Source: Mayamaea pseudoterrestris
Taxonomy: Eukaryota
NCBI GenBank assembly: GCA_027923505.1
Contig: BROI01000003.1
Span: 992,001-1,056,000, forward strand
Length of the DNA stretch: 64,000 nt
Direction: 5' to 3'
In this document: positions 9,216-54,434 of the stretch, piece after piece
Layout of the letters: the number at the start of each line of letters is the position of its first letter
Numbering within the stretch: the first letter of the stretch is position 1
The notes under the pieces: model-generated
Seen by the model: the letters and a program-made list of their open reading frames with translations, nothing else
What the model was told of the DNA's origin: nothing
Database searches by the model: none
Position numbers and translations under genes: made by a program

Positions 9216-11904
9216 CTACGATATAGCGCAGTAGTCTTCACAGTTGCACTTTACATCCGCTTGCGGTGCAACCGAAACATCATTCTCATCCTCATGGAAG
9301 ACATCTTTACTGTACGCCGCCAATATCTTGGTGATAGTCGTAAACGCCGGCCGCAGACTTGGGTTCTCGTCCCAGCACTCCTTCAAAAGGTTTTGTAACC
9401 GAGCGTCAAGCTCGCGGGGAACAATTGGACGGTCACCGACTTCGGCCGCTCGCTTGACAGCTTGCATACCAGGAAGTTGCGGCCAAGGCGGTCGACCAAC
9501 AAATAAGTAAAACAAAATCATCGCGTAAGAATAGATATCAACCGTCTCGTTGTAGTCCTTGTGCAGAAATACTTCCGGCGCTGATATTTAAAGACAAATA
9601 ATTTGCTGTCAGAGAGGAAAGTTTGTGACGTGTATGAATAATATGCATATGCTACTTACCCATGAATCGATAGCTGCCAGTCTCGCCCGTCATGGTAAAT
9701 CGATCTGTTTCCTTCTTGTTGGGATCGGGACGAACCTTGCTCAAACCAAAATCGGAAATCTTAAGCATGCCTATGCATTCGGCGAGAAACAGAATGAGAA
9801 AAAGTGAAGCGCAAACAAGTTTTAACCAATCAATCATCGTTTCGCACCTGAATGATCAATGAGCAAGTTGGCGGGTTTTAAATCCCTGTGTATGATGGGA
9901 GGACGGCACGAATGGAGATAGGTCATTCCTTGAGCAAGCTGCCGTGCGTATACAATGGCTGTGCGATGCCTCATTTTGCTGCCTTGGATAATGTGCGCCT
10001 TAAATATATCCAGCAGCGAGCACTTCATGAGCTCAGAAATAAGGCACTCATAATTTTCCGTAGTCGAGTATGCCAACAGGAGCACAATGTGCGGGTGACG
10101 CAAGCCCTTCAAGACGGAAATTTCCTGGCGAAAGTCGGCCAGCGCAATTACCTTGGCTTCCTGGTCAAGCTCTGCTTCGTCAATCTCTTTGATGGCATCG
10201 TCCACGTCCTTGCCATCATTCAAAGCTTTTGACATGCGCTTAATGACCCAATCTCGTCGAATCTTTGCCGTCTTGATAATCTTGGCCGCCACAAGTGTCC
10301 CTCGCCATCGACACTTGTAGATTTCACCAAACGCGCCACTGCCAATTTTGTCAATCATTTCCAGCTCGTCAAACTGTACCTGCATATTATCCTGTTGTCG
10401 CCGACTGGAGGCATCCAAAAAGTCTGGCGACGACTGCTCCTGCTGCTGAATCATAGACGCTGACATTGCCGATCCAACGTGAGCCCCATACTTTTCCAAA
10501 ACATGCTGACACTCATCGTGTCGATTCTGAATGGCATCGTCCAACGGCGTTCGATGCCAGCGATCTTCAACATTTACATCTGCGCCAGCCTCGCACAGGG
10601 CATTGACAATGGCAACGTGTCCTTCACCTGCCGCCAAGTGCAAAGCCGTCCGACTATTGTAGTCTCCCTTGTTAATGTCAAAGACTGGAGCAGCAGCCTG
10701 ACCATTGGCGACAGGAGTAGTATTGATGGCTGCTGCAACAGCCGCTTTTCGATCAGCCACTGCCTTTGCTTCCTTGGCCGTTGCATCCAAAATCATGGTG
10801 ACTTCATCCAAGTCCCCATCCGCCGCCGCCTTGATAAAATTGACCAATCGATTGCCACTTCCCGTCGAAGCTCCCTTGTTGCGCAAATACAGGGCCACTT
10901 GTTGATGCCGATGTCGGTGCGCATCATCCAATGGACTGCCACCCCATCGGTCACTTCTATTCAAACGCGCCTGGCATTCCTCAATCAAGAATTTGCAAAC
11001 ATGCAAGTGCCCCTCACTCGCTGCAACATGCATGGCGGTGCGCCGATCGTAATCGCGAAAGTCAACATTGGTTTTCTTGTCGGCGAGCAATAAGCGCATG
11101 GCGCTGACATCGCCACGAGCGGCAGCTTGGAGCAAGTTGCAGCCAGCGGCGAATTGTTCTGGTGGCTGTTTATAGGGTGTGAGCGTTAAACAACAGTGGA
11201 AGTAAATAAAGACTGAGAGTTTCATTCTCGCAAAGCATGCAGCCCAAAACGCAACAAAGTCTACCATTTCTGCTTACCATCTCCAAGTCTTGTCGATTGG
11301 CAAGAATGCCTGCACCCGCCCAATTATGTTCCGTATTGCTGAGCTGACTGCACTGCAAAACGTCCGTCTCAACGCTGTTGTTAACGCTTCGTCCATTCGC
11401 CGTTGGCATAGATTGACTCATAATGGCGGCAGCGTGACTACTGCTGCTCGTAGTATGATGATGGTAGTGCTGTCCAGCATGCAGGACTCGCTGAATCAAT
11501 CCTCGACTTCGCGATGTACTCTTTTCCGTCCGCGGCACGCCAACGCTTCCAGCTGGCGGACCTGGAATAACGTCTTCATTACTTCCCACTGGAAACAAGT
11601 CTTCGTCATCATCCTCAATCGCAATGACAACTCCCTTCTTAGTAAGCTTGGTTGGACTATTACTAGAGGTTGATAACGTATGATTGTAATTACTGCTTGC
11701 ATTCGCACCATGATTCATGCGCTGTCCTCCACTCCCCTTGCGCGACAAACCGGCTGGCGGCGGCGGTGGCAGCGACGGTGAAACTCCCATATTGGCAAAT
11801 CCGTATTCAAGTAGATTAGGAGACGTGTGATTTCTGTTGGACATTGTCAATGGTCGATTGCTATTGTGCATATCATTCTTCTTGTCGGCCATGGTGCTCG
11901 TCAT
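9216..11904 (-). CDS. Ankyrin-repeat TKL protein kinase (ILK/MAP3K-like); exons 11904-11278, 11165-9848, 9770-9660, 9580-9216
   Basis: Two ankyrin clusters (DYDRRTAMHVAA, DYNSRTALHLAA), GSGAFG, VAAK, HRDLKPAN, DFG, and APE restored by splicing. Confidence 0.9.
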
Positions 11905-12220
11905 GTTTATTTTGCTGGATCAGCGGTGATGGCTGAGTGGTGCCTTTGCTTATAAATGCAGACTATTGTCAAACTGCTATTACAAATAACAATAGCAGCA
12001 GCAGGAGAGGGCAGCAGGATATACTTATACGCTGTCAGGTCGACGAGAGAAGGGACGAATCTTGTGTAAATGCGTGATGGTCGTCGTCAACTTCAGCGTC
12101 TTGAAAAGACATGGATGTTTATCGCATGGCGACTCATGCTCTGGAGGCCGAGCTACTGGGTACAAATCATGACTAGCAGTAGGCTATGAAAAATGCAATC
12201 TATAGATACTCTGTCGAATC

Positions 12221-13750
12221 CTACGTGTGCTGCCGCATACGTGCCAGCCATGCAATCGTAGCTCGTTCAATGTCAGCAGCCGTGTCGAAGGGACTCCTCT
12301 TGCCAACCTGACCTGTCGCTCGGGCTAGCCAGGTAGGCGTGAGCATTGCCACATCTGAAAACTCCATGTGATGCGAATCATCGACAACTTGAAAGTTAGA
12401 CGTTCCTTTAGGTCGACCAAGGCGTCCTTGACGGTAAAGCTCTTCAACAATCTTTGACTCGCCCCAATTCTTGTCCTGCCACTCCTTCGAGTACATTACT
12501 AGCAGGTCGTGCGGGTTAGTGCTACCTTTGCAATCAGTTTTAGTAGCTTTCCCGTATCCTCCAGTTCCTCCAGTGTACTTTTGTGTTAAGTCCATCATGA
12601 CGCTGTCGGAAAACAGGGATTTACGAGCATCATCCGTCATCCAGTCTACAGCCGGCTCGTGAGCAACCACACCACGGACAATATTAGGTCGCCTCGTCGC
12701 AGCAACTAGGGCGGTCGCTCCGCCAAATGAATGACCCATGAAAACAACATTGCTCTTGTCAAGCCGATCGCGCACAGATAGTCCAGCTTTGACAAGATCA
12801 ACATTATCGCGCGCGTCCAAAGCAAGAAACGCTTCCACCGCGGCAAGAAACTCTCGAGCTCGATAATCTGCTTGACCGCGTCTCCTTCTTACATAAGTAC
12901 TGTAGTCTTGACTTGACCATAGCTTGGCGACATTGTGGTCATAAAGGCGAACGGAACCGTCATGCAGCATCATCGCCGGAGCGCTTCCGTCAGAGTGGTT
13001 GATGGATAAAACCAAATAGCCTTGTGAAGCAAGACTCATCGTCTGATAGGTGTACATTTCACTGCTTCCACCTAGACCATGAGAATAGATAATGACTGGC
13101 AGTTTGGTCGAGTCACCAGTCAGCAGCGCGGCGTTCTTCCTGATGGGCACTCGAATTAGCCGCCAGTAATGAAGAAACCAGCCGCATTTTTTCAGCATCG
13201 ATGGGGCACCAAAAACCATAGTTTGTAAGCAATATACCTTCGCCAAGGCTGGATTCAAGTAGGGTATTCCACCATTTGATTCATCCATCGTCGGATACAG
13301 CAAGCGAACGGATACGTGACTCGGAATGGCATCCTCACCTCCGCTATTGCACGGATCACCAGCTTTGACAGGTAGAAAAAGATCAGCAACACCAACTCGG
13401 TACGGACCATGTATTGCTGGAAGTTTTAATGGAGGAAACAGCACGCAAAGCAATGCTGCCAACGCAATCAAGAGCATGCTGAGACTCATTATCAGCACCG
13501 TTGACCATCGGTGCTCGACTGACGGCACATATCGCAACGCTTGAAGCACAAGCAACGGAACCATCGGAAAGGTGAGAGGCCACCGGTTTGTCGGTCCAGC
13601 TGTAAGCATTGCCAAAACATATGGTATCGGAAAGACGATTGCGTGATAGAAATGGTCGACGGAAGAAATGCTTGTGACAAGGAGGAGACTCAAGCTTACA
13701 GCATCAAGAATGATGCGACTTGGAATGCAGCAAGATTCATTAAGCAACAT
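12221..13750 (-). CDS. PAF-acetylhydrolase-like alpha/beta hydrolase with N-terminal TM segments
   Basis: GPYRVG, PVIIYSHGLGG, LASQGYLV, H-x-DGSA, GHSFGGATA nucleophile elbow, HMEFSD. Confidence 0.85.
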   Translation of the reverse strand: MLLNESCCIPSRIILDAVSLSLLLVTSISSVDHFYHAIVFPIPYVLAMLTAGPTNRWPLTFPMVPLLVLQALRYVPSVEHRWSTVLIMSLSMLLIALAALLCVLFPPLKLPAIHGPYRVGVADLFLPVKAGDPCNSGGEDAIPSHVSVRLLYPTMDESNGGIPYLNPALAKVYCLQTMVFGAPSMLKKCGWFLHYWRLIRVPIRKNAALLTGDSTKLPVIIYSHGLGGSSEMYTYQTMSLASQGYLVLSINHSDGSAPAMMLHDGSVRLYDHNVAKLWSSQDYSTYVRRRRGQADYRAREFLAAVEAFLALDARDNVDLVKAGLSVRDRLDKSNVVFMGHSFGGATALVAATRRPNIVRGVVAHEPAVDWMTDDARKSLFSDSVMMDLTQKYTGGTGGYGKATKTDCKGSTNPHDLLVMYSKEWQDKNWGESKIVEELYRQGRLGRPKGTSNFQVVDDSHHMEFSDVAMLTPTWLARATGQVGKRSPFDTAADIERATIAWLARMRQHT

Positions 13751-14241
13751 TTTCGTTGAAAATCGGTTGAGTGATCTGCTTAAAGCCAAGATTACAAAGA
13801 AGAGTATCAGTGGTCGTATGACAACAAATGTAATATCGCTCTGATGACAGTGTGGTTTCTAGTTTGTTCGCCCATGGTCGTCGGGAGTTGCCGACGTGGT
13901 TCGAAAGAATTCAAGCGGAACGATTCTATTCGTGAAAAGATTGTGTAAAGATGGTTTTCAATCTTGCTTTATTTACATTGTCCTTTGTGGAAGGAAACGA
14001 TGCGTGCGCAATTTATCCTCCACTCCTTCCATGTCTACCGGTATACACATATCAAGAGTACAGTACCAGTAGATAGGTATACCCATTGCAATTAAATGGT
14101 ATATGCTTGGTTCTTAGTGCTGGACGCGACAATGATATCCGCTGACAATGCCTGCCTTTCACCAGCCATGTCATATCGCGGAGCGCGACTATGTACAGTC
14201 ATACAACCGGATTAATAGTTGATAGACAAAGCCATCAATGC

Positions 14242-17145
14242 TTAAAACTCTGCGCATTGAACAACTGATTGCTGACTCTCAGTGCGAGTTTCGGGCTCCT
14301 TCAAATCACATTCACTTGTCAAGTCATTTGCCGCAACCGGCTGGTCCACACAAGCAAAGCTCCTTGACTGGTTTAAGGACACATCGGCACTTGATCCCGG
14401 CAGTACAACAGTCAAATCACTAGAAGCGTCACTGAGTTCTTCTGGGCAAGTCGTCACAGCAGCAGACCCTGATTGCATCATGTCGACAGCTGAGTTAGCA
14501 ACATCGAAATTGTGACCGGAGTCGCCAGACTGGTCTGTTTGTAGAGGCTCTTCGAAGACAAAGCCTTTCATCGGTGAAACCCCCGCTTGACCAACAGTTT
14601 CATTACTTGGTTGTCGAGGCTGCGGTCGCATTTCGGATCCGTAAAAGCGGAAAAAATAGTTTCCAACAGATGCCAGCTTGCCATGAGCAACTTGAGAAAT
14701 TAGTTCAGCTGAAATATTAAGCGCTTTCCCAGCATCAACCAAGGATTGATACTTTGTAAGGACGGTCCCTGTTTCCAAACACAGCCTTTCCACTGGTTTT
14801 GAGCCTCCCGCAACACCACCTGATGCAGGTAGGATGTTTGAGCCCACGTAACGAAAGTAGAAGTCACCAACACGAGCACCACGGTAGACGCGACTAAGAG
14901 AGTTGCTGTCAAGCCCGAACGCGTCGCATGCGGCCTTAGACGATGGATATGTTGCTGCGACTGTATCCGTGAGTAAACAAACCCTTTCGACAGGCTTCGA
15001 CTGCACTTTCGGTTTCTTGGGTTGAGGTAATTGCTTGGCAGTCTTTGGCGTCGGCGTACCCAATTTCAACGTTAGCCCATCCACAGGCATCGACCGAACA
15101 ATTCGCGTATTCAGATGATTAATTGGCGTCGGCATACTCACACCTGCCGTTGACACATTGGCAGGCATACATTCCGATTGACTTGATTGCGAGGCAGTAT
15201 TTACTGTTACCATGTCACCAACTAAGGTTGGCTCAGCAGTTTGTGCACCAGCGGTGAAATGTGGCGGAAGGCGCTTCGATCCTTTAAAGCGAAAAAAGTA
15301 ATCGCCAGCTGAAATTCCTTGACCTCGAGCAACACGACGAATATCATTAATCTTCAATCTAGTAGATCTAGCAGCTTGTGTTAATGAGTCGTAACGACCC
15401 AACACTTCTCCAGTTGCGAGACTCAGCATTTCAACAGGACGAGGGAAACCATTCGGTACAAACGTCAAATCTTCTTCGAGCATATCAATTTGCGCATCGC
15501 CGGTGGGGACACTTGAACTATTGTAGCGAAAGAAGAAACCGCCAGTTGAATTGACTTTTGCTTGGAGAACGTCATATATTTTGCTTCGAGATATCTTGAG
15601 TTGCCTTGCGGCATCGGAGATGGATCCGTAGCCATCAATTACATCGCCGGTCTTTATACAAAGTCTTTCAATGGATCTTGCGCCTGCTGGATGCAGGTTG
15701 CGGCTAGCCGATGCTGTACTTTCACCCTTCACTTCAGAAACTTTATAGACCTTTCCATCGTGGAAGTCCCATGAGTACCCCGCAACTACCTTGCTTACTT
15801 TCGTGGCTGCCATGCAAGCATCTACAATCAGTCGTGCAGTAATGTCAAGCGATAAGACTCGCGTAGCCATACTAGCCGACGGAAACGTGTTTGTTATGCC
15901 AGTCGATAAATCTGTGCATGCAACATCACGAAAAGCTTCCGGCAGGGTCTTTCGGTTATACAAATGGGGTCTGCTGCTAATAGGAAATTTGCACGCCGGA
16001 CAGAAAAAGCTCTTTTGACACTGCTCCATGACGCATGTCCGGCAGAAGGTATGACAACACACGAGACTCCTGGGCGATTCCATAACGTCTCGTTTGCAAA
16101 AGGGGCAGGAATCTCCAAGCTTGCCCACCGAAACTGCGGAGACTTCGGATGGAACTGGAGACCCGGCATCCCTATTCGAATTAGCGCGCGAAGCTAACGG
16201 TGCAACAACCTTCTTTCGTGAGCGTGTTGATGCCGAACGCTTCCTTGGAGCGATGGTTGCAGCTGGCAATGACACAGAAGTGGTCTTTTGTTTCTTGGTG
16301 TTTGCGGTAGTCGTTTTTGCCGGCAGGGCTCGCTTCATTGATCCGTCCGCCGACGCGCTTCGCTTCCGCTTTACAGTAGCATTGCTGTCGACGCGCGGCT
16401 TGCCCTTTGCCTCGTGCTGCGCCTTTTGATTCTTTTCTGCTTTGCTCGAGTCTGCGTTGCCCAGCAGTTTGACATCTGTCAATGCCAAATTGACGTCAAT
16501 TTTGTCGCCATCGTCAAACAGAATTTTCATCTTGCCCTTTGTATTGACAACGCCAGTCACAACCGTTCCATCGTAGAATTTTCCTCCGTCACTGTCGTGA
16601 AAAAAGACTGCAATGCGAGTACCAGCTGTGATTCTAGTCATATCTAGCTCTTTCCCGTGAACGTAGCTTCCATCGTCCGAAGACGTCCTGACGCTCTCTT
16701 CGTCATCGTCAAGCAATCGAAACTTTTCCTCAAACAAGCACTCCCAAGTTTCCCCCTTGGTGTCATACTTGATGAGGTACTCATTGGCTTTTCCAAGCTC
16801 AATCTTTTGAACAGTCCCAGCAAACCATTCAGCGTATGGCGTCCAGTAAATCTCGACCCGAGTGCCAACCTTGACACGAGCGAGGAGTAATCGTTGCTCC
16901 TCCTGTTCCTTCGCTTCGGCCGTCCCAGCTGGATAAAGAACCCTATATATTTTGGTTGACAACACGATCCAGTCTCGATATCCATTGTCGTAGAGGATTC
17001 GCCACTGCTTCCCATCGTCGCGATTGTTCACCAACGTGCCTTTGACGTACTCTTGTTGCTCGGGCCACCACACCTCCAGCCGAGTTTTACCCGATTCAAA
17101 CATGGGCCCCTTTCGCTCCTTACGTTCGTCCACGGATCGACTCAT
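14242..17145 (-). CDS. Multidomain nuclear protein: 3 Tudor-like repeats, C3HC4 RING, 5 NUMOD1-like HTH repeats
   Basis: 967-aa intronless ORF with RxEVxW..W/Y.G....YD.G repeats, CPFC...CCHTFCRTC...CPAC, and five repeats of the form PVE.L...TG.V...Y.S...AA......I.....G.....G.FFRY. Confidence 0.75.
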   Translation of the reverse strand: MSRSVDERKERKGPMFESGKTRLEVWWPEQQEYVKGTLVNNRDDGKQWRILYDNGYRDWIVLSTKIYRVLYPAGTAEAKEQEEQRLLLARVKVGTRVEIYWTPYAEWFAGTVQKIELGKANEYLIKYDTKGETWECLFEEKFRLLDDDEESVRTSSDDGSYVHGKELDMTRITAGTRIAVFFHDSDGGKFYDGTVVTGVVNTKGKMKILFDDGDKIDVNLALTDVKLLGNADSSKAEKNQKAQHEAKGKPRVDSNATVKRKRSASADGSMKRALPAKTTTANTKKQKTTSVSLPAATIAPRKRSASTRSRKKVVAPLASRANSNRDAGSPVPSEVSAVSVGKLGDSCPFCKRDVMESPRSLVCCHTFCRTCVMEQCQKSFFCPACKFPISSRPHLYNRKTLPEAFRDVACTDLSTGITNTFPSASMATRVLSLDITARLIVDACMAATKVSKVVAGYSWDFHDGKVYKVSEVKGESTASASRNLHPAGARSIERLCIKTGDVIDGYGSISDAARQLKISRSKIYDVLQAKVNSTGGFFFRYNSSSVPTGDAQIDMLEEDLTFVPNGFPRPVEMLSLATGEVLGRYDSLTQAARSTRLKINDIRRVARGQGISAGDYFFRFKGSKRLPPHFTAGAQTAEPTLVGDMVTVNTASQSSQSECMPANVSTAGVSMPTPINHLNTRIVRSMPVDGLTLKLGTPTPKTAKQLPQPKKPKVQSKPVERVCLLTDTVAATYPSSKAACDAFGLDSNSLSRVYRGARVGDFYFRYVGSNILPASGGVAGGSKPVERLCLETGTVLTKYQSLVDAGKALNISAELISQVAHGKLASVGNYFFRFYGSEMRPQPRQPSNETVGQAGVSPMKGFVFEEPLQTDQSGDSGHNFDVANSAVDMMQSGSAAVTTCPEELSDASSDLTVVLPGSSADVSLNQSRSFACVDQPVAANDLTSECDLKEPETRTESQQSVVQCAEF

Positions 17146-17462
17146 TTGATGTTACAACGAGAGTTGATCTAGCAAAACGAGGAATTGTAGGCAAGAGCCG
17201 ATCAAAACCCACGCGATGGAAGAGGGCTCGCATTTCCTCGTGCTCGTCAAGGCGTCACGCTCGTGGTTGTCCGGCGCACTCACATGCATTCGATGGTACG
17301 CTTTGAATTATGCCAAATCATTTTGAGAGTCGCTGTGGAGTAGTTTTGGTGCCCGTACGACTTCACGAGGGGCGGCACGAAAGTCCGTTTCCATCACTCC
17401 ATCAGTTGAGGTATTCACGTCGACAACTATATACTTTTGTTACCGGTACGCTTGTATGAACA

Positions 17463-18280
17463 ATGTCGACAACTTATGAAGACTATGAGCGAGTAAGTTG
17501 ACTTGAAGTGATGCCTTTAAAGAGATGAAATCGAAGTGTGGAAAGGTTGCGACGAGCGAGATAAATAGTGACAAGAAACACAAGAACAACACGATCACTA
17601 ACCAATCATTATCCACTTTCTTTTTATGATCAAAGGAGTACCACGGCATTCTCGCGCGCATTCGCAACTTTTTAGCGGGTGCACGAAATTATGCGACTCT
17701 ACAGGAAGCTCAGAGCATGTTGAACGAAGCCAAACGTTGCGCGACGGCCATGCAAGGCCTTGCCGAGGTGGAAGGGAACTCGCTACGCGTCCAGGAAAGC
17801 AGAAATTTGCTGCAGCGAGATATTGGTCCCTTGTCAAGAGAGGTACAGCGGCAGTTGAATGAGTGTCAATCTCAGGAGCTCATGGGAGGAACGACCGTGT
17901 CATTAAGCGGTGGTGGAGGAGGCTACCAGCCGCCTGATTTGGAATCAAATTACACGGACATGGATAGCTTGATTCGGTCCAGTGAAGATTTGCTACGGGA
18001 ATCCCATTCCATAATGTATGAGACGGAGCATATTGGAAATACGACTCTTTTGCAAATGGGCCGACAGCGCGAGCAATTGGAGAATACAAATCGTCACCTG
18101 CAAGCTGTGCGCCAGGTGGCCGAGCAAGCGAAGAATATCTTGACAGGCCTTGGTCGTCGAGCTTTGAAAAACAAAATCGCTTTGTACTGCATGATTGCGC
18201 TATTGGCATGGGCGAACCTCTATGTACTGCACTTAATCTACAAGAAGCACCACAAAGGGAGCAGTGGCGGCAATCATTAA
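17463..18280 (+). CDS. Vti1-like Qb-SNARE (exons 17463-17492, 17636-18280)
   Basis: MSTTYEDYER|EY N-terminus through a GTAAGT...CTAAC...AAG intron; SNARE motif ETEHIGNTTLLQMGRQREQL; C-terminal TM helix. Confidence 0.75.
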
Positions 18281-18563
18281 TCATGCCACTTGCTTTGCCT
18301 CTACGGCAACGCCGGGTATTTTAAGTTGCATAGGATTATCAAGACATTCTTATATTTTTCACAGAAGCATGCTACCTTTTTGTGCATCGAGTAGACTACC
18401 AGGTCTTGTACAGTACTGTACTGTACATAGCTCGGACTGTCGCAATGGAAACCTGTGCGATGCGCATTGTGCCATCCATCTCGCGCGACGCTTTCCGACG
18501 CAACGATCGATAGTCAAAGCTCATGCAATCTTCGCCGCAAATGCTTTCATTTAACTTGACACA

Positions 18564-19727
18564 ATGGATCAGTCTCGTGTAAAATTGGAGAAGGTCTATG
18601 AGCAGCTAAAGCCGTATACTCCCGAATATGCTTTGCGCATCTCTCCTTGCATTTCCGACAAAGAAACACTGGCCTATCGCTGCAAATGTTCGTTCCAAAT
18701 GGTTAGAAACAATGACGGACGTTTTGATTTCGCTGTTCGAAAACAGGGAATACCTGTGATCATTGATGATTTTCCTGTGGCAAATGAGCGCATCCAACGA
18801 GTCATGAAAGGTTTCATCTCAATGCTTAACGACGACGCTACAATCGACACAGTCTTTCGAAATAACCTCTCGAGCATTACATTCTCAAGTTCTTGGAGTA
18901 ACGAAGGAGATTGCGTAGTGGCCTGTAACTACGACAGTTTGATACTAGATCCCACCCAATGGAAACAACAAGCTTTAAAAGTGTGTCATGAGCTTGGTCT
19001 GTCACATTTACTTTGTCGCTCACGAAAATGTGTCTTGTCAGCCTTTGATCACGACGCAATTCTGCGAGACCGAATTTTCATTCAAGTTGCTGGCGATAAC
19101 GACGACGAGTGGAAAGTCTTGTTCGGCGATGCTGGTCATATCGGTCGAGGAATCCCCGTGGACTACGAAAAGCCAGAGTCTGCCTTTTACCATCCCAACG
19201 TTCGTGCAATGCTGAAAGCACTACAATGGCAACTTGAACGTATGTCGCGCATCAGTCGTCAGATTTCAACTCGCAAGCTAAGACTACTTGAGCTATACTG
19301 CGGATGTGGCGCCCATACAGTTGCGCTAGCCAAGTCTGGCATGTTCGAGTCAATTGTTGCCGTCGAGCTGGATCAGCGATTGGTGGAGAAGGCTAGACGA
19401 AATGTTCAACTGAATGAGCTCGAGAACATATCAATTGTGTCAAATGATGCAGCTCTTTGGGCTGAGAAAAACTCGAATGCCTTGTTTGACGTGATCCTCG
19501 TCGATCCTCCCAGGCAAGGCCTCGCAGAAAGCGTTTGTAAAATGGTCATTAATGCATCCACTTGTGACAACATGCTATACATTTCTTGTGGATACGAGGC
19601 GCTGGTACGTGACCTTCAGATATTGGCCACGGCTTTTGATGTTATCGACTGCACGATCGTGGATTTATTTCCGACCATGGAGGGTGTCGAGTCTTTAGTG
19701 CATTTACACCGACGCAAAACCATCTGA
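18564..19727 (+). CDS. TrmA/RumA-family RNA (uracil-5)-methyltransferase
   Basis: YRCKCSF, F-x-H-PN, LLELYCGCG SAM-binding motif, VDPPRQGL, YISC catalytic Cys, DLFP...VE. Confidence 0.88.
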   Translation: MDQSRVKLEKVYEQLKPYTPEYALRISPCISDKETLAYRCKCSFQMVRNNDGRFDFAVRKQGIPVIIDDFPVANERIQRVMKGFISMLNDDATIDTVFRNNLSSITFSSSWSNEGDCVVACNYDSLILDPTQWKQQALKVCHELGLSHLLCRSRKCVLSAFDHDAILRDRIFIQVAGDNDDEWKVLFGDAGHIGRGIPVDYEKPESAFYHPNVRAMLKALQWQLERMSRISRQISTRKLRLLELYCGCGAHTVALAKSGMFESIVAVELDQRLVEKARRNVQLNELENISIVSNDAALWAEKNSNALFDVILVDPPRQGLAESVCKMVINASTCDNMLYISCGYEALVRDLQILATAFDVIDCTIVDLFPTMEGVESLVHLHRRKTI

Positions 19728-19833
19728 GTTGGTCCTTACATATTTGAGCTATCTAAGCGAATGATCGCATCGAGCGCGCATTACAAAGAACAGTTAGATA
19801 ATAATTTGTACAGGTCTGCGCAATCACTTAGAT

Positions 19834-21408
19834 TTATTTTGTAAAATTGCCCAATCTTGTCAACCATCTTCCAACGTCGACCGAGTACTGTGCAAGATAG
19901 GCGTCCTTTGACTGCTTGTAGTTGCGAACTTTAAGCGTGTGGTGAGGAGCAATGGTAACTTTGGCGCTGACTATCATTTGGGCGGCTTTACCATCGAAGT
20001 GCAGGTCGAGGAGTTGAGCATTGTGCCCCAAATCCAACGAAATGGCTGGCAACACGGGTACAAACATTCCAAATCCTGGATTGAGCGAGATTTCGAGCCC
20101 TGGAAATGTGAGCACGTGACCTCGGCTTGTGAAACCAAGGCCGGAGCGAACCTCAAACTCAAGGATCTTGCCGAAAACAGTCTTGGCCGCGCCCCGGCAG
20201 GATATTTTGCCGTTTGGAAGGATAACAATAGTGTCAATACTGATTCGAACAGCCTTGGTGCCACGAAGCTTGAGAATACGAGAAAGTAAATTCTTGAGTC
20301 CGTTTCGTATACATCGGGAATCGACAAGATCCTCTTGTGTGAAAGTTATATTGCGCCCGTGAAACTCGAACTGGTTTAAGTAACGGTGTCCTCTGACGGG
20401 AATCGGGCTGGGAGTGAGTGACCATAAACCCAAATTTAGTCGACTGACTTCGATCCGCCCCTTGTGCATTTGGATTGCTCCAAAAACAATGCGATCAAAA
20501 TCAACACTTGCATCACAAGCAAATCTTCCCTGCACAAGGTCCAGCGTATTGCTTTGTGGGTGACAGTTGACGCAAAGGTTAACATGTGACCCTTGCGACC
20601 ACCGATCAAGGAGTCCTACTAAAATGTTTTGCACCCATGGGCGTGTTATTCGCACAAACGGCGAGCCACCTTCAACAGTAGACTCGACTGGACTGGAGGC
20701 GGCTGGCAGTTGAGTCGTCGTGAGCTGTGCTATCTCTGCTTCGAGAGCACTGGCTATCATGCTGGATGACTCTTCATTAATCTCGATTGAATCAGCAGCG
20801 GCGAACGGATTCAATTGGTCTACCGGTAGATCTTTCACCGAACAAACAATCGAAGCAGACGTTGCTTCAACTTGTCGAGACGTTTGGCCGTTTCGCGCAG
20901 TCATAGGATGTAGTGACATGTGCATGCTTTCAACCGAATTAGTCGCGTGAACAGAGACTGGATCTACCGGTAGAGTATTTTCAAAGGTTAACACATCCAA
21001 ATTATGCGACAAGTTGTGCCGCAATCGGCTTTCCTGTTCCTTTCTCAAATCAAACGGCCGACCCATCAAATTTAAAGCTTGCTGCAAATCTACTTGCTCT
21101 TGGTGAGCAACAGCAGCACTCATTTCAAGTCCTTTTCGTCGGCTCCGTCGTCGAAAGACTCTTCGTAAAACACGCTGATGCCATCCCGTCGAGTCTGGGG
21201 ATGACTGGTGATAGTCCTGACCACTGCCATCGGCGATGGCTGCCGCCATGTAATGACTTGTCGTTGTTCGTCGGATTAAAGCATTCGTTCGACGATTTCT
21301 TGCGCCAGTGATTCCGCCAGATGTTGGTGGAACAATCGTCCAACTGCTAGACGGACAAGCAAGCAAAACTGCGGCTGCTGTAGTGGCTGCGATCCGCTTG
21401 ATAGTCAT
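19834..21408 (-). CDS. Signal-peptide protein with a C-terminal beta-rich (DUF2993/LmeA-like?) domain
   Basis: First plausible ATG (MTIKRIAA...) gives a signal plus transit-like peptide in a long clean ORF; the domain call is tentative. Confidence 0.55.
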   Translation of the reverse strand: MTIKRIAATTAAAVLLACPSSSWTIVPPTSGGITGARNRRTNALIRRTTTSHYMAAAIADGSGQDYHQSSPDSTGWHQRVLRRVFRRRSRRKGLEMSAAVAHQEQVDLQQALNLMGRPFDLRKEQESRLRHNLSHNLDVLTFENTLPVDPVSVHATNSVESMHMSLHPMTARNGQTSRQVEATSASIVCSVKDLPVDQLNPFAAADSIEINEESSSMIASALEAEIAQLTTTQLPAASSPVESTVEGGSPFVRITRPWVQNILVGLLDRWSQGSHVNLCVNCHPQSNTLDLVQGRFACDASVDFDRIVFGAIQMHKGRIEVSRLNLGLWSLTPSPIPVRGHRYLNQFEFHGRNITFTQEDLVDSRCIRNGLKNLLSRILKLRGTKAVRISIDTIVILPNGKISCRGAAKTVFGKILEFEVRSGLGFTSRGHVLTFPGLEISLNPGFGMFVPVLPAISLDLGHNAQLLDLHFDGKAAQMIVSAKVTIAPHHTLKVRNYKQSKDAYLAQYSVDVGRWLTRLGNFTK

Positions 21409-48940: not shown

Positions 48941-51481
48941 CTAATTAGGGTTCGGGCTCTTGACTTCGCCGCTCTGCGACTTGTCACTCCCCTCGGGTAC
49001 GCTGCTGGTCGTAGCCGCATTCTTGTCCTTCACAATCGCATACGATGTATCGCCGCGCCAAAACAATACTGGCTTGAGCAATGGCATCGCATCACAGTAC
49101 GGCAGGTACTTCGTCAGTACGTCCGCAATGTTCTCCTTTCCGTCAATCTTCACAAACTTGATAATCCCCGCAGCAACTGCCCAACGAACACGATGGTAGG
49201 CCAACGCATTGTGTCGCTTGGACAATGTCGAACTTGGGATTGTAGATTGCGTAATCACTGCTTGGTTGTCTCCGTACATCCAGGCAGACTTCTCCAATGG
49301 TACGCCCATAGCCATGAGCGACGCGCGTAGAGAAATGCTGATATCCGTTCCACTCTTTGCTACGCCGAATTCCGATCCGAAGGTCGCAGTCTCGACTGTA
49401 GCCTGGAGTTTGCAATGCCAGTCGACAGGCGTCTGGTTGACAAATGACAAAACTCCTTCCAATGACTTGCCTGTCACCATGCAATGCATGAGACACGCAT
49501 CCTCGAAAGTTGATGTTCGTACGGTCACACCCTTTGGCGGTGGGTAGACGTCCAACATCTCATCAACTCCGTCCTTCCCGTAAACGCTGCGCTCCCAATC
49601 TTGTTCCTCCATGGTGCCGAAGTGCTCCTCGTTGGCTGGCCACTTCGTACGGAAACGGATTGCTGCGTCCGGTAACTCTCGCAAATATCCACAGACTCGC
49701 TTCACCCGCTGCAGGTGTCCCTTGCGCGGCTCCACACGGAATCGCGACAGACTCACAACTGCAACGGCAATGTCAAATCGTCCCAAAGTAATCGCCCACT
49801 GAAGTGCTCCGACTAGAGACTGGTAAATCTTCTTCTCTTGGTCGTTCAGTAGCTCGCTTTGGTCAAGTTCTGGATGATCGTCTTTGTCGATTGGTGATGA
49901 ATACTTCTTCGGAGGACCTTCAAACAAACGCTCGTACTGCGCCAAGAGTTTCGCAACGTAGGTCTTGGCCGACCAGTAAAGGGTTCCGTCAGGGTCTCGT
50001 CCAAAGTCACCGCCGAGATGATACTCGGGATGTCCAACACCTTTGAGCTTAAACTTGTACTTCTCCTCTAGCATCTTGAAGAACGCTGCTGGATCGTCTG
50101 AAATATTCAACAGATCGTCGACCCATACACAGAGGTAGTCGTAGCTGTCGCCGGCGTCCTTGATCCACAGATCGGAATCGCAATAGGACGGCTTCCACCC
50201 TTCCGCAAGTAGGGCGTCGGCTAAGCGTTCGTGAAATCGTGCTCCGCTCGTTCGCAATCCGTACAAAGCCTTGACGATGACCAGGATGTGTCCTTCGCGC
50301 TCCCCGAACTCGGGGCCTCCAACGAAGTATACCTTCTCCTTGGTGAACGCTTCGAGATAAGCATTCCCAATGTCACCGACCATGCACTTCTTGCCGTTTG
50401 CTTCTCCAATGACGAGAGCTAGACGCATTGCCTTCAATGAGATAACACTGGAGTAGGCATCGTCGTTGTCTTTCGTCATGTGGCCGCCTGCAACGAGACG
50501 TGCCTTGTATCGCAAATCGTGCTTGACATCGTACACAAAATGGACTCGGATCTTTTGGTAACCAGTTGGTGGTGCTGTGGTGGAACTCGGACCGAGATCT
50601 TGAAACGTCTCGTACTCGTCCAGGTTCGCAAGCTCCACGCCTTCCGCATCCGTCCACTTCGTGTGCCCTGCAGCTTCTTGTAGACGACGCGCTTCCTTCC
50701 AGTCTCGGGGTACTTGGACTCCAAACTTGTAGCGCGGTCCGTTCTTCTGCTGCTCCATTCGGGCGATCGCCACCTTGCGCGCAACCTTCTTGGCGTTCCG
50801 GGCCCATCGATTCAACGATGTCCATCCGTCCTTGTCGAGAAGATTATGCTTTTGCGCGTAGGCTGCCACTGATACTTTGTCGCTTTCGATCATCGCGTTG
50901 AGAGGCTCCCAAGTCTTGGATCCATCGTCCCATTGTACAAGGACGTTCCACTTGGAGTGCTTCCAGTTCTTCGACTTGCTCGTCAGCGGACCCTGATGGT
51001 CTAGAATCTCCTTGAAGAACCATTTACGCTCAGGATTCGCCATGTCTTGGTTCACTTCGGCCTCGTAGAGATCGGAAACCTCGACATAGGACATGACTTC
51101 GTCCGCTTCGCCGTTACCAAGCTTCAGCATCATTTTAATGTTCTGATGGTTCTGGGCGTCGCGGTTGTTCAGCTTGCTCATGACGGTCGCTCGAACTTCT
51201 TGCCCGTCGTCCATCTTCATGAGAAACGACTTGCCGATAAGTTCATCGGGTGCATACTTCGGGAGTTTGCGCCACGGATTGATGTTCTTCTTCTTCGGCT
51301 TGTCGTCGTCGTCATCGGCAGGATCGTCATCGGCAGGATTAGGATCTTCCTCCCCGTCGGTCATATCGTCGTCTTCCGGGTATTCCACCGTCTCAACCAA
51401 AGGGGTATCGTCTTCGTCAGGAATGAAAGAATCATCGTCTCTGCTGTCGGCGTCGGTAATCTTCTTGATCATTTCCGGCAT
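48941..51481 (-). CDS. Copia pol C-terminal part: chromodomain-like + RT + RNase H (copy 1)
   Basis: KARLVAGGH, GDIGNAYL, KALYGL, WVDD, GRFDI, FEDA, ETATFGSEF, NIADVLTK. Confidence 0.92.
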   Translation of the reverse strand: MPEMIKKITDADSRDDDSFIPDEDDTPLVETVEYPEDDDMTDGEEDPNPADDDPADDDDDKPKKKNINPWRKLPKYAPDELIGKSFLMKMDDGQEVRATVMSKLNNRDAQNHQNIKMMLKLGNGEADEVMSYVEVSDLYEAEVNQDMANPERKWFFKEILDHQGPLTSKSKNWKHSKWNVLVQWDDGSKTWEPLNAMIESDKVSVAAYAQKHNLLDKDGWTSLNRWARNAKKVARKVAIARMEQQKNGPRYKFGVQVPRDWKEARRLQEAAGHTKWTDAEGVELANLDEYETFQDLGPSSTTAPPTGYQKIRVHFVYDVKHDLRYKARLVAGGHMTKDNDDAYSSVISLKAMRLALVIGEANGKKCMVGDIGNAYLEAFTKEKVYFVGGPEFGEREGHILVIVKALYGLRTSGARFHERLADALLAEGWKPSYCDSDLWIKDAGDSYDYLCVWVDDLLNISDDPAAFFKMLEEKYKFKLKGVGHPEYHLGGDFGRDPDGTLYWSAKTYVAKLLAQYERLFEGPPKKYSSPIDKDDHPELDQSELLNDQEKKIYQSLVGALQWAITLGRFDIAVAVVSLSRFRVEPRKGHLQRVKRVCGYLRELPDAAIRFRTKWPANEEHFGTMEEQDWERSVYGKDGVDEMLDVYPPPKGVTVRTSTFEDACLMHCMVTGKSLEGVLSFVNQTPVDWHCKLQATVETATFGSEFGVAKSGTDISISLRASLMAMGVPLEKSAWMYGDNQAVITQSTIPSSTLSKRHNALAYHRVRWAVAAGIIKFVKIDGKENIADVLTKYLPYCDAMPLLKPVLFWRGDTSYAIVKDKNAATTSSVPEGSDKSQSGEVKSPNPN

Positions 51482-51893: not shown

Positions 51894-54434
51894 CTAATTA
51901 GGGTTCGGGCTCTTGACTTCGCCGCTCTGCGACTTGTCACTCCCCTCGGGTACGCTGCTGGTCGTAGCCGCATTCTTGTCCTTCACAATCGCATACGATG
52001 TATCGCCGCGCCAAAACAATACTGGCTTGAGCAATGGCATCGCATCACAGTACGGCAGGTACTTCGTCAGTACGTCCGCAATGTTCTCCTTTCCGTCAAT
52101 CTTCACAAACTTGATAATCCCCGCAGCAACTGCCCAACGAACACGATGGTAGGCCAACGCATTGTGTCGCTTGGACAATGTCGAACTTGGGATTGTAGAT
52201 TGCGTAATCACTGCTTGGTTGTCTCCGTACATCCAGGCAGACTTCTCCAATGGTACGCCCATAGCCATGAGCGACGCGCGTAGAGAAATGCTGATATCCG
52301 TTCCACTCTTTGCTACGCCGAATTCCGATCCGAAGGTCGCAGTCTCGACTGTAGCCTGGAGTTTGCAATGCCAGTCGACAGGCGTCTGGTTGACAAATGA
52401 CAAAACTCCTTCCAATGACTTGCCTGTCACCATGCAATGCATGAGACACGCATCCTCGAAAGTTGATGTTCGTACGGTCACACCCTTTGGCGGTGGGTAG
52501 ACGTCCAACATCTCATCAACTCCGTCCTTCCCGTAAACGCTGCGCTCCCAATCTTGTTCCTCCATGGTGCCGAAGTGCTCCTCGTTGGCTGGCCACTTCG
52601 TACGGAAACGGATTGCTGCGTCCGGTAACTCTCGCAAATATCCACAGACTCGCTTCACCCGCTGCAGGTGTCCCTTGCGCGGCTCCACACGGAATCGCGA
52701 CAGACTCACAACTGCAACGGCAATGTCAAATCGTCCCAAAGTAATCGCCCACTGAAGTGCTCCGACTAGAGACTGGTAAATCTTCTTCTCTTGGTCGTTC
52801 AGTAGCTCGCTTTGGTCAAGTTCTGGATGATCGTCTTTGTCGATTGGTGATGAATACTTCTTCGGAGGACCTTCAAACAAACGCTCGTACTGCGCCAAGA
52901 GTTTCGCAACGTAGGTCTTGGCCGACCAGTAAAGGGTTCCGTCAGGGTCTCGTCCAAAGTCACCGCCGAGATGATACTCGGGATGTCCAACACCTTTGAG
53001 CTTAAACTTGTACTTCTCCTCTAGCATCTTGAAGAACGCTGCTGGATCGTCTGAAATATTCAACAGATCGTCGACCCATACACAGAGGTAGTCGTAGCTG
53101 TCGCCGGCGTCCTTGATCCACAGATCGGAATCGCAATAGGACGGCTTCCACCCTTCCGCAAGTAGGGCGTCGGCTAAGCGTTCGTGAAATCGTGCTCCGC
53201 TCGTTCGCAATCCGTACAAAGCCTTGACGATGACCAGGATGTGTCCTTCGCGCTCCCCGAACTCGGGGCCTCCAACGAAGTATACCTTCTCCTTGGTGAA
53301 CGCTTCGAGATAAGCATTCCCAATGTCACCGACCATGCACTTCTTGCCGTTTGCTTCTCCAATGACGAGAGCTAGACGCATTGCCTTCAATGAGATAACA
53401 CTGGAGTAGGCATCGTCGTTGTCTTTCGTCATGTGGCCGCCTGCAACGAGACGTGCCTTGTATCGCAAATCGTGCTTGACATCGTACACAAAATGGACTC
53501 GGATCTTTTGGTAACCAGTTGGTGGTGCTGTGGTGGAACTCGGACCGAGATCTTGAAACGTCTCGTACTCGTCCAGGTTCGCAAGCTCCACGCCTTCCGC
53601 ATCCGTCCACTTCGTGTGCCCTGCAGCTTCTTGTAGACGACGCGCTTCCTTCCAGTCTCGGGGTACTTGGACTCCAAACTTGTAGCGCGGTCCGTTCTTC
53701 TGCTGCTCCATTCGGGCGATCGCCACCTTGCGCGCAACCTTCTTGGCGTTCCGGGCCCATCGATTCAACGATGTCCATCCGTCCTTGTCGAGAAGATTAT
53801 GCTTTTGCGCGTAGGCTGCCACTGATACTTTGTCGCTTTCGATCATCGCGTTGAGAGGCTCCCAAGTCTTGGATCCATCGTCCCATTGTACAAGGACGTT
53901 CCACTTGGAGTGCTTCCAGTTCTTCGACTTGCTCGTCAGCGGACCCTGATGGTCTAGAATCTCCTTGAAGAACCATTTACGCTCAGGATTCGCCATGTCT
54001 TGGTTCACTTCGGCCTCGTAGAGATCGGAAACCTCGACATAGGACATGACTTCGTCCGCTTCGCCGTTACCAAGCTTCAGCATCATTTTAATGTTCTGAT
54101 GGTTCTGGGCGTCGCGGTTGTTCAGCTTGCTCATGACGGTCGCTCGAACTTCTTGCCCGTCGTCCATCTTCATGAGAAACGACTTGCCGATAAGTTCATC
54201 GGGTGCATACTTCGGGAGTTTGCGCCACGGATTGATGTTCTTCTTCTTCGGCTTGTCGTCGTCGTCATCGGCAGGATCGTCATCGGCAGGATTAGGATCT
54301 TCCTCCCCGTCGGTCATATCGTCGTCTTCCGGGTATTCCACCGTCTCAACCAAAGGGGTATCGTCTTCGTCAGGAATGAAAGAATCATCGTCTCTGCTGT
54401 CGGCGTCGGTAATCTTCTTGATCATTTCCGGCAT
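51894..54434 (-). CDS. Copia pol C-terminal part: chromodomain-like + RT + RNase H (copy 2; translation identical to copy 1)
   Basis: Same 846-aa translation, offset by 2953 bp. Confidence 0.92.
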   Translation of the reverse strand: MPEMIKKITDADSRDDDSFIPDEDDTPLVETVEYPEDDDMTDGEEDPNPADDDPADDDDDKPKKKNINPWRKLPKYAPDELIGKSFLMKMDDGQEVRATVMSKLNNRDAQNHQNIKMMLKLGNGEADEVMSYVEVSDLYEAEVNQDMANPERKWFFKEILDHQGPLTSKSKNWKHSKWNVLVQWDDGSKTWEPLNAMIESDKVSVAAYAQKHNLLDKDGWTSLNRWARNAKKVARKVAIARMEQQKNGPRYKFGVQVPRDWKEARRLQEAAGHTKWTDAEGVELANLDEYETFQDLGPSSTTAPPTGYQKIRVHFVYDVKHDLRYKARLVAGGHMTKDNDDAYSSVISLKAMRLALVIGEANGKKCMVGDIGNAYLEAFTKEKVYFVGGPEFGEREGHILVIVKALYGLRTSGARFHERLADALLAEGWKPSYCDSDLWIKDAGDSYDYLCVWVDDLLNISDDPAAFFKMLEEKYKFKLKGVGHPEYHLGGDFGRDPDGTLYWSAKTYVAKLLAQYERLFEGPPKKYSSPIDKDDHPELDQSELLNDQEKKIYQSLVGALQWAITLGRFDIAVAVVSLSRFRVEPRKGHLQRVKRVCGYLRELPDAAIRFRTKWPANEEHFGTMEEQDWERSVYGKDGVDEMLDVYPPPKGVTVRTSTFEDACLMHCMVTGKSLEGVLSFVNQTPVDWHCKLQATVETATFGSEFGVAKSGTDISISLRASLMAMGVPLEKSAWMYGDNQAVITQSTIPSSTLSKRHNALAYHRVRWAVAAGIIKFVKIDGKENIADVLTKYLPYCDAMPLLKPVLFWRGDTSYAIVKDKNAATTSSVPEGSDKSQSGEVKSPNPN

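Follow-up and report, generated by a model that had tools for sequence, protein, structure and literature searches.

A Tudor-RING-NUMOD gene in Mayamaea pseudoterrestris

The DNA analyzed here (hereafter the window) is a stretch of 64,000 nucleotides from the diatom Mayamaea pseudoterrestris, taken from contig BROI01000003.1 of GenBank assembly GCA_027923505.1 (positions 992,001 to 1,056,000 of the forward strand), and the gene of interest occupies positions 14242..17145 of its minus strand. The gene consists of one open reading frame (ORF) of 967 amino acids (aa), with its ATG at 17145 and its stop codon at 14242-14244, in which no intron was detected. The encoded protein combines three Tudor domains, a C3HC4 RING finger, and five helix-turn-helix (HTH) modules of the NUMOD type. 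When we compared it with a GenBank-annotated "hypothetical protein" of 972 aa from the same species (P0151), the two aligned end to end with 97% identity (939/972). Because the two are collinear over their whole length, we accept the intronless gene model; judged by their sequences, the two look like alleles or haplotypes.

The domains were delimited with family hidden Markov models (HMMs), started from the protein itself and refined by iteration over its relatives; all the domains lie, like the gene, on the minus strand. The N-terminal part holds Tudor 1 (16933..17091, residues 19-71; independent E value [i-E] 2.5e-15), Tudor 2 (16708..16881, residues 89-146; i-E 6.9e-20), and Tudor 3 (16459..16638, residues 170-229; i-E 1.3e-12), the last containing the best stretch (170-228) for the Pfam BAHCC1-like_Tudor model. 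A basic, low-complexity linker follows (16114..16458, residues 230-344), with a net charge of +19 over 115 residues; its KRKR, KKQK, and RKRSASTRSRKK stretches are putative nuclear localization signals. The C3HC4 RING finger (15991..16107, residues 347-385) was assigned from its ligand spacing, its conservation among relatives, and its matches to RING structures in the PDB. It is followed by NUMOD-type module 1 (15751..15933, residues 405-465), a divergent subtype with an i-E of 0.0039, and by modules 2 (15511..15687, residues 487-545; i-E 1.7e-21), 3 (15274..15450, residues 566-624; i-E 1.1e-21), 4 (14836..15006, residues 714-770; i-E 1.6e-17), and 5 (14632..14808, residues 780-838; i-E 8.9e-22), the last two of which are separated by 9 residues. 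An acidic, Ser-rich tail (14245..14631, residues 839-967; net charge -14 over 129 residues) completes the protein.

A prediction made earlier from the letters of this DNA (the original prediction) had described three Tudor-like repeats, a C3HC4 RING, and five repeats of about 50 aa with no GIY-YIG or HNH nuclease motif. The count of five repeats stands, four of them strong and one divergent, but their length is 57-61 aa. The missing nuclease was borne out: a Pfam scan carried up to an E value of 10 returned no HNH, GIY-YIG, or other nuclease family, nor any BRCT, UIM/MIU, SAP, SRA (YDG), PHD, or ubiquitin-like (UBL) domain. The segments outside the nine domains are low-complexity linkers, and the Pfam scan recognized no domain in residues 230-344, 625-713, or 839-967. 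The N-terminus of the protein is hydrophilic, and we found no organelle-targeting features in the 967 residues.

The NUMOD-type modules share the fold of homing endonuclease DNA-binding domains

Two Pfam models exceeded their cut-offs on the repeats: I-HmuI_NUMOD-like (PF22083) scored 61 bits against a cut-off of 27, with its best stretch at residues 505-540 of module 2, and NUMOD1 (PF07453) scored 43.1 bits against a cut-off of 22.8, with its best stretch at residues 791-817 of module 5. We modeled residues 340-640 with AlphaFold2 from a 16-sequence alignment and obtained a mean predicted local distance difference test (pLDDT) score of 82.3, with low confidence only in the inter-module linkers. 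In this predicted model each of the three NUMOD modules covered has a beta1-beta2-alpha1-alpha2-beta3 topology and a pLDDT above 90, and the RING and module 1 form a single continuous high-confidence stretch, with no low-confidence linker between them. Comparison of module 2 with the HTH domain of I-HmuI (1u3e_M, residues 107-174) by VIA-align gave a Z of 9.4 over 65 residues with a root-mean-square deviation (rmsd) of 3.5 A, and comparison with the Paulinella protein sCTP-23166 (8b6e_A) gave a Z of 7.5 with an rmsd of 1.7 A over 51/52 residues; the NUMOD model matched I-TevI (1i3j_A) with a Z of 6.3. The identification of the repeats as NUMOD1/HTH modules in the original prediction is thus upheld both by the Pfam scores and by a predicted fold that superposes on I-HmuI. 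A tblastn search with modules 2-3 against 50,697 phage records found seven records (E 7e-4 to 1e-3), in all of which the match fell under an annotated HNH endonuclease gene.

The conservation of the module was described from 507 instances of the repeat in the best 150 relatives. The core positions V492, G500, F/Y506, S508, A512, I523, G536, W539, and R540 are conserved, with entropies of 0.25-1.3 bits (A512 0.25, W539 0.59, and I523 0.98 bits, for example). In helix 2, positions 520, 521, 522, 524, 525, and 528 reach 3.5-3.8 bits over the same repeats, which ranks them with the most variable of the module. These helix-2 positions correspond approximately to the DNA-contacting residues Q33, N34, and K37 of sCTP-23166, matched by eye through the conserved Ile/Ala/Trp pattern. 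Positional orthology of the individual repeats across relatives is weakly resolved (30-53% identity). Despite its weak HMM score, we judge module 1 to be a genuine NUMOD-type module, since 12 relatives with Tudor, RING, and NUMOD domains all share F405, V408, S423, A427, C444, W459, and F461 and since AlphaFold2 predicts for it the same topology as for the others. By analogy with I-HmuI, I-TevI, and sCTP-23166, the NUMOD array would be expected to bind double-stranded DNA (dsDNA).

The RING finger has canonical ligands and is conserved together with module 1

The eight predicted zinc ligands of the RING (C347, C350, C363, H365, C368, C371, C382, and C385) show canonical C3HC4 spacing, defined here as C-x2-C-x(9-39)-C-x(1-3)-H-x(2-3)-C-x2-C-x(4-48)-C-x2-C, which bears out the C3HC4 RING of the original prediction. 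All eight ligands and P383 are invariant in a 12-sequence alignment; in the 16-sequence alignment seven ligands are invariant and C382 is present in at least 90% of sequences. The unit formed by the RING and module 1 is the best-conserved part of the family. P383 and K386 presumably occupy, as placed by eye, the E2-contacting Pro and the "linchpin" basic position usual in RING E3 ligases.

Phmmer searches of the PDB with the protein gave RING matches that were confined to the RING region, led by the equine herpesvirus 1 (EHV-1) RING (E 1e-5), BMI1/PCGF (1e-4), and UHRF1 (2.4e-4), with weaker matches to BRCA1, COP1, RNF8, and RNF168; of these, BMI1/PCGF, UHRF1, and BRCA1 are E3s of chromatin. 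Residues 2-66 of the model compared by VIA-align with many RING/U-box structures at Z values of 6-7.8, including the RING of RNF125 (8gbq_B; Z 7.8, rmsd 2.2 A, 56 residues), and Foldseek matched the RING with probabilities of 0.9-1.0 at E values of 0.02 or higher. In the model, the predicted RING thus adopts a cross-brace RING fold. A search of the ESM Atlas returned generic RING clusters only, with scores of at most 0.78, below its lead threshold. Of the 48 relatives scanned, 10 scored above the cut-off of the Pfam zf-C3HC4 model, P0003 (23.2 vs. 21 bits) and P0018 (29.1 vs. 21) among them.

Tudor 3 appears to retain a methyl-lysine cage in conservative form

The Pfam BAHCC1-like_Tudor model (PF21744) scored 30.4 bits against a cut-off of 28, and an AlphaFold2 model of residues 1-240 (14-sequence alignment) had a mean pLDDT of 85.2 and comprised three five-stranded barrels. 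Together with the family HMM, these results agree with the three Tudor-like repeats of the original prediction. Foldseek found 98 PDB matches to the Tudor model at E<=0.001, led by the triple Tudor of SETDB1, Spindlin, and the tandem Tudor of BAHCC1 (E values of 1e-6 to 3e-5). TM-scores to SETDB1 and Spindlin were only about 0.2; the individual barrels therefore match, whereas their placement relative to one another differs. A profile of the N-terminal region matched the structure of the RDM15/PDS5C Tudor with monomethylated lysine 4 of histone H3 (H3K4me1; 7de9_A) with an E value of 4.7e-12, over Tudor 2, and BAHCC1 with an E value of 7e-4; phmmer matched Tudor 1 to 7de9_A at 5.6e-5.

According to PMC8184781, the RDM15 cage residues W616, Y623, and Y641 hold the methyl group, D643 and D645 coordinate the monomethyl-ammonium, and H3R2 is read through E647 and Q654. 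We mapped the cage and the aspartate pair, in the order W616, Y623, Y641, D643, and D645, onto the three Tudors; the residues of Tudor 1 come from its phmmer alignment with 7de9_A, and those of Tudor 3 from a MAFFT alignment of the three Tudors. Tudor 1 has W27, V34, Y52, N54, and Y56 at these positions (2/3 aromatics, 0/2 Asp), Tudor 2 has W101, F108, Y127, T129, and G131 (3/3 aromatics, 0/2 Asp), and Tudor 3 has F182, Y191, F210, D212, and D214 (3/3 aromatics, 2/2 Asp). By this mapping, the Asp pair on which the H3K4me1 mechanism of RDM15 depends is kept in Tudor 3 alone. Because all five RDM15 positions would be retained there in conservative form, a role as reader of a low methylation state of lysine is plausible for Tudor 3; it is weaker for Tudors 1 and 2.

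The protein belongs to a family that recombines Tudor, RING, and NUMOD modules

A HMMER search over 1.84 billion cluster representatives (50% identity) yielded 472 proteins at E<=1e-3, of which 132 reached 1e-10 and 29 reached 1e-30. We sorted the best 150 of these 472 relatives, among them the query, into classes by the family HMMs and a strict regular expression for the RING. NUMOD modules alone, 1 to 13 per protein, made up the largest class (69/150), followed by Tudors alone (43/150), Tudor with RING and NUMOD (19/150), Tudor with NUMOD (16/150), RING with NUMOD (2/150), and RING with Tudor (1/150). The RING counts are a lower bound, since the regular expression missed, for instance, a RING in P0040 that Pfam zf-C3HC4 detects; a Pfam scan of 48 relatives (P0003-P0050) agreed with the classes. 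Ten of the 19 triple-domain proteins have the order seen in the 967-aa protein, namely at least two Tudors, the RING, and at least two NUMOD modules, and relatives with the full architecture include P0003 (978 aa) and P0004 (749 aa) at about 40% identity. A second sub-architecture (P0006, P0015, P0018, P0021, P0034, and P0035) consists of the RING, 3-4 NUMOD modules, a Tudor, and two further NUMOD modules; at the corresponding position (625-713), the 967-aa protein has no Tudor. The protein is thus a member of a family that recombines these modules and no isolated oddity.

Organism names were obtained for five clusters among the 30 proteins looked up, most other relatives being metagenome proteins. 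All five are diatoms: P0151, P0010, and P0017 are from Mayamaea pseudoterrestris, P0015 is from Attheya sp. CCMP212, and P0081, which is annotated as a "RING-type domain-containing protein," is from Chaetoceros debilis. P0018 is an MMETSP transcript. Judging by these five clusters, the family spans pennate and centric diatoms, and the lineage specificity suggested in the original prediction holds as far as it can be told from them.

Several relatives deserve mention in their own right. P0010 and P0017, which carry consecutive locus tags in Mayamaea pseudoterrestris, are adjacent triple-Tudor paralogues that have neither RING nor NUMOD modules. P0017 adds a WRKY19-type zinc finger (Zf_WRKY19, 31 bits vs. 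a cut-off of 27), and the reader unit has therefore been reused with a different putative DNA binder. P0027 (883 aa, Tudor with NUMOD) has a sub-threshold N-terminal AP2 match (27.4 bits vs. a cut-off of 33.3); if this match is real, a single chain would hold DNA-binding domains of two different kinds, both derived from endonucleases. P0078, P0118, P0026, and P0092 are NUMOD-only proteins with 10 to 13 tandem modules, far more than in any homing endonuclease known to us. Among P0170-P0176, several metagenome proteins are NUMOD arrays that also carry PF01693 and PF09565 as candidate precomputed labels, and true GIY-YIG proteins with NUMOD modules (PF01541) appear at the weak end of the NUMOD-only search list. 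Word-indexed homologue searches yielded one and two relatives, a meager return that is probably due to the low-complexity linkers swamping the candidates; a search of this kind with a NUMOD-only alignment yielded 27 proteins.

The gene is a resident nuclear gene under constraint in its domains

The genes that neighbor the ORF in the window are of a housekeeping kind: a hydrolase resembling PAF-acetylhydrolase, a SNARE, a tRNA U5-methyltransferase, a cyclophilin, an LCAT-like acyltransferase, and COG5. No direct or inverted repeats of at least 25 nucleotides (nt) were found within positions 11500-20000 of the window, and inspection of the neighbors and flanking repeats revealed no intron, intein, or free-standing mobile cassette around the gene. 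The GC content is even over the whole window, and none of the other six-frame ORFs of at least 50 aa in the window matched the family HMMs. Given the housekeeping neighbors, the lack of flanking repeats, the even GC content, and the lack of further family ORFs, we conclude that this is a resident nuclear gene outside any transposon or viral island.

The allele pair differs by 8 substitutions in 512 domain residues and by 20 in 455 linker residues (Fisher p 0.011), and the sole indel between the two, of 5 aa, sits in a linker. The C-terminal tail (839-967) accounts for 8 of the 28 allelic substitutions. The locus tag of P0151 does not occur in the two supplementary files of PMC9724779 that we searched, and the main text of that paper mentions neither Tudor nor RING.

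Contigs from runs X3 and X4 are collinear with parts of the 967-aa ORF and have no joint inside it. In contigs of the same two runs, a segment of 143 nt (17493..17635, plus strand) that lies upstream of a SNARE-like ORF (17717..18280) is skipped, with GT..AG ends and a joint from 17492 to 17636. The skipped segment lies in a V-SNARE/Sec20-like gene, and its features suggest that it is an intron in the 5' part of that gene; the GT..AG joint in turn suggests that the X3 and X4 contigs are RNA-derived. Over positions 13500..18500, run X1 is nearly identical to the window, and runs X2 and X4 depart from it by numerous single-base changes and 1-nt indels. These departures would fit a second haplotype or strain, in keeping with the annotated protein at 97% identity.

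Comparison with known systems

The closest precedent for a nuclease-free module of this kind is the characterized DB-sCTPs of Paulinella chromatophora. As described in PMC10319021, these are 161 nucleus-encoded proteins in which the core is conserved and the DNA-proximal residues of helix alpha2 vary; one of them, sCTP-23166 (PDB 8B6E), is a nuclease-free module that binds dsDNA with a KD of 3.4 nM. The same source places the equivalent helix in the major groove in I-HmuI, which contacts eight target positions, and in I-TevI, which contacts six. It also states that a stand-alone protein of this domain has never been found outside Paulinella, and it makes no mention of diatoms.

The DB-sCTPs and the diatom modules are alike in having the nuclease-free I-HmuI/I-TevI HTH fold, in being encoded by eukaryotic nuclear genes, in forming a large family, and in the variability of alpha2. 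They differ in that the DB-sCTPs are single stand-alone modules imported into the chromatophore, whereas the diatom protein strings five modules together in 967 aa with Tudor domains and a RING. The C-terminal HTH domains of I-HmuI (1U3E) and I-TevI (1I3J) share both Pfam family (PF22083/PF07453) and fold with the diatom modules. In contrast to HNH and GIY-YIG homing endonucleases, however, the diatom protein has no nuclease and no mobile context, and it has five tandem modules in a chromatin-type fusion.

Among chromatin proteins, UHRF1 and its plant counterparts ORTH(VIM) follow the same logic, in that a single chain unites a Tudor reader of methyl-lysine with a unit that recognizes DNA and with a C3HC4 RING. 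The diatom protein is without the SRA, PHD, and UBL domains of UHRF1, its RING stands between the Tudors and the DNA binders, and it aligns with UHRF1 in the RING region alone. Whereas UHRF1 and ORTH read DNA by flipping out 5-methylcytosine, the diatom HTH modules presumably read it by sequence. We therefore regard UHRF1/ORTH as an analogue of the diatom protein, not as a member of the same family or as a homologue beyond the generic domains that both have, because SRA, PHD, and UBL domains were not found in the latter. The proteins whose Tudors resemble those of the diatom protein, namely the cohesin regulator RDM15/PDS5C, the BAH-domain reader BAHCC1 (8YE8), and the methyltransferase SETDB1, have neither a RING nor a NUMOD domain. 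A homing endonuclease DNA-binding domain of another fold than NUMOD has given rise to a lineage-specific family of eukaryotic transcription factors in AP2/ERF and ApiAP2.

Our searches of open-access papers and bioRxiv, which covered supplements in part, turned up no account of NUMOD-type modules in nuclear proteins of diatoms or stramenopiles or of a Tudor-RING-NUMOD architecture. Nor did they find a characterized protein with that architecture, in agreement with the original prediction, or any link between NUMOD-type modules and diatoms. Going by titles and the beginnings of abstracts, the NUMOD literature among the matches listed concerns endonucleases, phages, organelles, or unrelated subjects, and the InterPro, Pfam, and SMART names and accessions led to no paper with diatoms in its title. 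To our knowledge, no published survey of diatom gene regulation includes a DNA-binding family derived from homing endonucleases. The component domains are all known and the nuclease-free module has its precedent in Paulinella; what is new, as far as these searches reach, is the combination of Tudor, RING, and NUMOD in an undescribed diatom family.

A chromatin-directed ubiquitin ligase is the favored interpretation

We think it somewhat more probable than not that the protein is a RING E3 ubiquitin ligase of a diatom-specific family, working in the nucleus and directed to chromatin, where DNA sequence and a methyl-lysine mark together would place it. This interpretation is based on the identities and order of the domains, their predicted folds, their conservation, and the context of host genes; that the protein sits in the nucleus, binds DNA and methyl-lysine, acts as an E3, and has a chromatin substrate is inferred, with methyl-mark reading and ubiquitination, like the TE silencing of the original prediction, drawn from domain identity. 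As a description of the architecture, the earlier notion is correct in that a domesticated DNA-binding array shares its chain with a methyl-mark reader and a RING. In the mechanism that we envisage, the five nuclease-free HTH modules would bind dsDNA with their second helix in the major groove, so that the array would read a long composite site. The N-terminal triple Tudor would dock on a methylated lysine of a histone tail, most likely in a low methylation state, because Tudor 3 keeps both the cage and the aspartate pair that gives RDM15/PDS5C its H3K4me1 specificity. The RING, rigidly joined to the first HTH module, would recruit E2~ubiquitin and modify a nearby chromatin protein.

Several observations weigh against this interpretation. 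In the 967-aa protein the Pfam RING models stayed under their cut-offs (zf-RING_2 18.4 vs. 27.3; zf-C3HC4 13 vs. 21), and the RING may be an interaction or dimerization domain with no ligase activity. Since Z values under 8 are common background in VIA-align, I-HmuI alone stands out among the structural matches of the modules, and none of the PDB matches that Foldseek found for the RING-NUMOD model reached E<=0.001, the best being I-HmuI (1u3e_M) with an E value of 5.3e-3 and a probability of 1.0. Module 1 may not bind DNA, given its poor repeat-HMM score and its lack of net charge. The Tudor cages are incomplete, with V34 at the position of Y623 in Tudor 1 and both Asp residues lost in Tudor 2; E647, the H3R2 contact, is kept in no Tudor (the equivalents are D58, T133, and I216), and the mapping of Tudor 3 onto RDM15 depends solely on the three-way MAFFT alignment. 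The best direct PDB matches of Tudor 3 are to the 53BP1 Tudor, weakly (phmmer E 0.037) and with a shared FDDG motif. None of the runs listed for this stretch is recorded as RNA, and the contigs described above are no more than a weak hint of expression from an intronless gene.

Alternatively, the protein could be a sequence-specific transcription factor, in which the HTH modules choose the promoters, recruitment or sensing of the transcription machinery falls to the Tudors and the acidic tail, and the RING serves interaction, dimerization, or self-regulation and is not a chromatin-modifying ligase. NUMOD-only arrays without a RING are the commonest class among the relatives, from which it can be argued that the module works as a DNA binder alone. 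The hypervariable helix-2 positions are as expected for diversified target specificity, the tail carries the acidic charge that this alternative calls for, and the Tudor module also occurs with other DNA binders, as in P0017 and, below threshold, in P0027. We nevertheless regard a transcription factor as rather unlikely: the tail is among the fastest-evolving parts between the alleles, and the invariance of the eight RING ligands and P383 in 12 relatives, with RING-module 1 the most conserved unit, points to a constrained, catalytic-type role. A role in DNA damage or genome maintenance, following the logic of 53BP1/RNF168/RAD18 or of PDS5C and MSH6-Tudor, with the Tudors directing a DNA-bound E3 to marked chromatin, appears quite improbable to us. 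It would draw on the 53BP1 matches of Tudor 3, on the match of the family profile to the RDM15/PDS5C Tudor, a type found joined to MSH6 in plants and in some stramenopiles according to a preprint (bioRxiv 10.1101/2024.10.15.618488), and on the presence of BRCA1, RNF8, and RNF168 among the RING matches. These RING similarities are, however, generic to C3HC4 fingers (E 1e-3 to 0.06), BRCT, UIM/MIU, and SAP domains were absent from the Pfam scan, and repair E3s normally recognize DNA structures or ubiquitin marks and not sequence, so that five variable HTH modules better fit site-specific targeting.

We give similarly little credence to a function in silencing transposons, as raised in the original prediction, or viruses, in which the endonuclease-derived array would recognize invading elements and the RING and Tudors would install or read repressive chromatin. 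The NUMOD module does descend from mobile-element endonucleases, the family shows the diversification and lineage specificity often met in arms-race families, and two Copia-type retroelement copies in the same window show that such elements are present in the genome. The gene is not adjacent to transposons in the window, however, and nothing links it to them; its domains are under purifying and not diversifying pressure between the two alleles, and RDM15/PDS5C, its closest Tudor relative, reads H3K4me1 and not H3K9 or H3K27 methylation according to PMC8184781. Finally, NUMOD1 modules are otherwise typical of mobile endonucleases, which could suggest a decaying homing endonuclease remnant or a misassembled or chimeric ORF with no cellular function. 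We consider this extremely improbable, since the ORF is intact over 967 aa and kept in a second allele, its domains are more conserved than its linkers, relatives with the full architecture exist in other diatoms, the folds are predicted with high confidence, and a search for nuclease, intron, intein, and terminal-repeat context around the gene found none.

Implications for diatom gene regulation

If the modules bind DNA like their solved relatives, they would constitute a sizeable unannotated class of diatom DNA-binding proteins, given that 472 clusters (50% identity) match this protein, and some members would wire sequence recognition to the reading of histone marks and to ubiquitination within one chain. 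The family would then be the second eukaryotic case, after Paulinella, of nuclease-free domestication of endonuclease DNA-binding modules, and both the way in which it combines reader and writer and, possibly, its use as a scaffold for engineered DNA targeting would be new. As putative DNA-binding proteins of chromatin, the members of the family are directly testable, and the diatoms are a lineage of ecological importance.

A bolder extension, which we put forward as a speculation and hold to be unlikely, is that the diatom NUMOD arrays form a modular, programmable DNA-recognition system and a major unrecognized class of regulators, with the Tudor-RING-NUMOD members as sequence-programmed histone ubiquitin ligases. 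In such a system each HTH module of about 60 aa would read a few base pairs through its six hypervariable helix-2 positions, and a tandem array of 2 to 13 modules would add these readings up to a long target, in principle as zinc-finger or TALE arrays do. The Tudor-RING-NUMOD ligases would act only where the DNA sequence and a low-methyl-lysine mark coincide.

Other features of the window

Two ORFs of 846 aa each, at 48941..51481 and 51894..54434 on the minus strand and about 3 kb apart, each match Pfam RVT_2 (Copia-type) with an E value of 3.2e-21 and look like tandem or recently duplicated retrotransposon copies. At 9834..11267, also on the minus strand, an ORF of 477 aa combines ankyrin repeats with a protein kinase match that ends at position 135 of the 263 in the profile, and this gene probably continues over an intron or is truncated.

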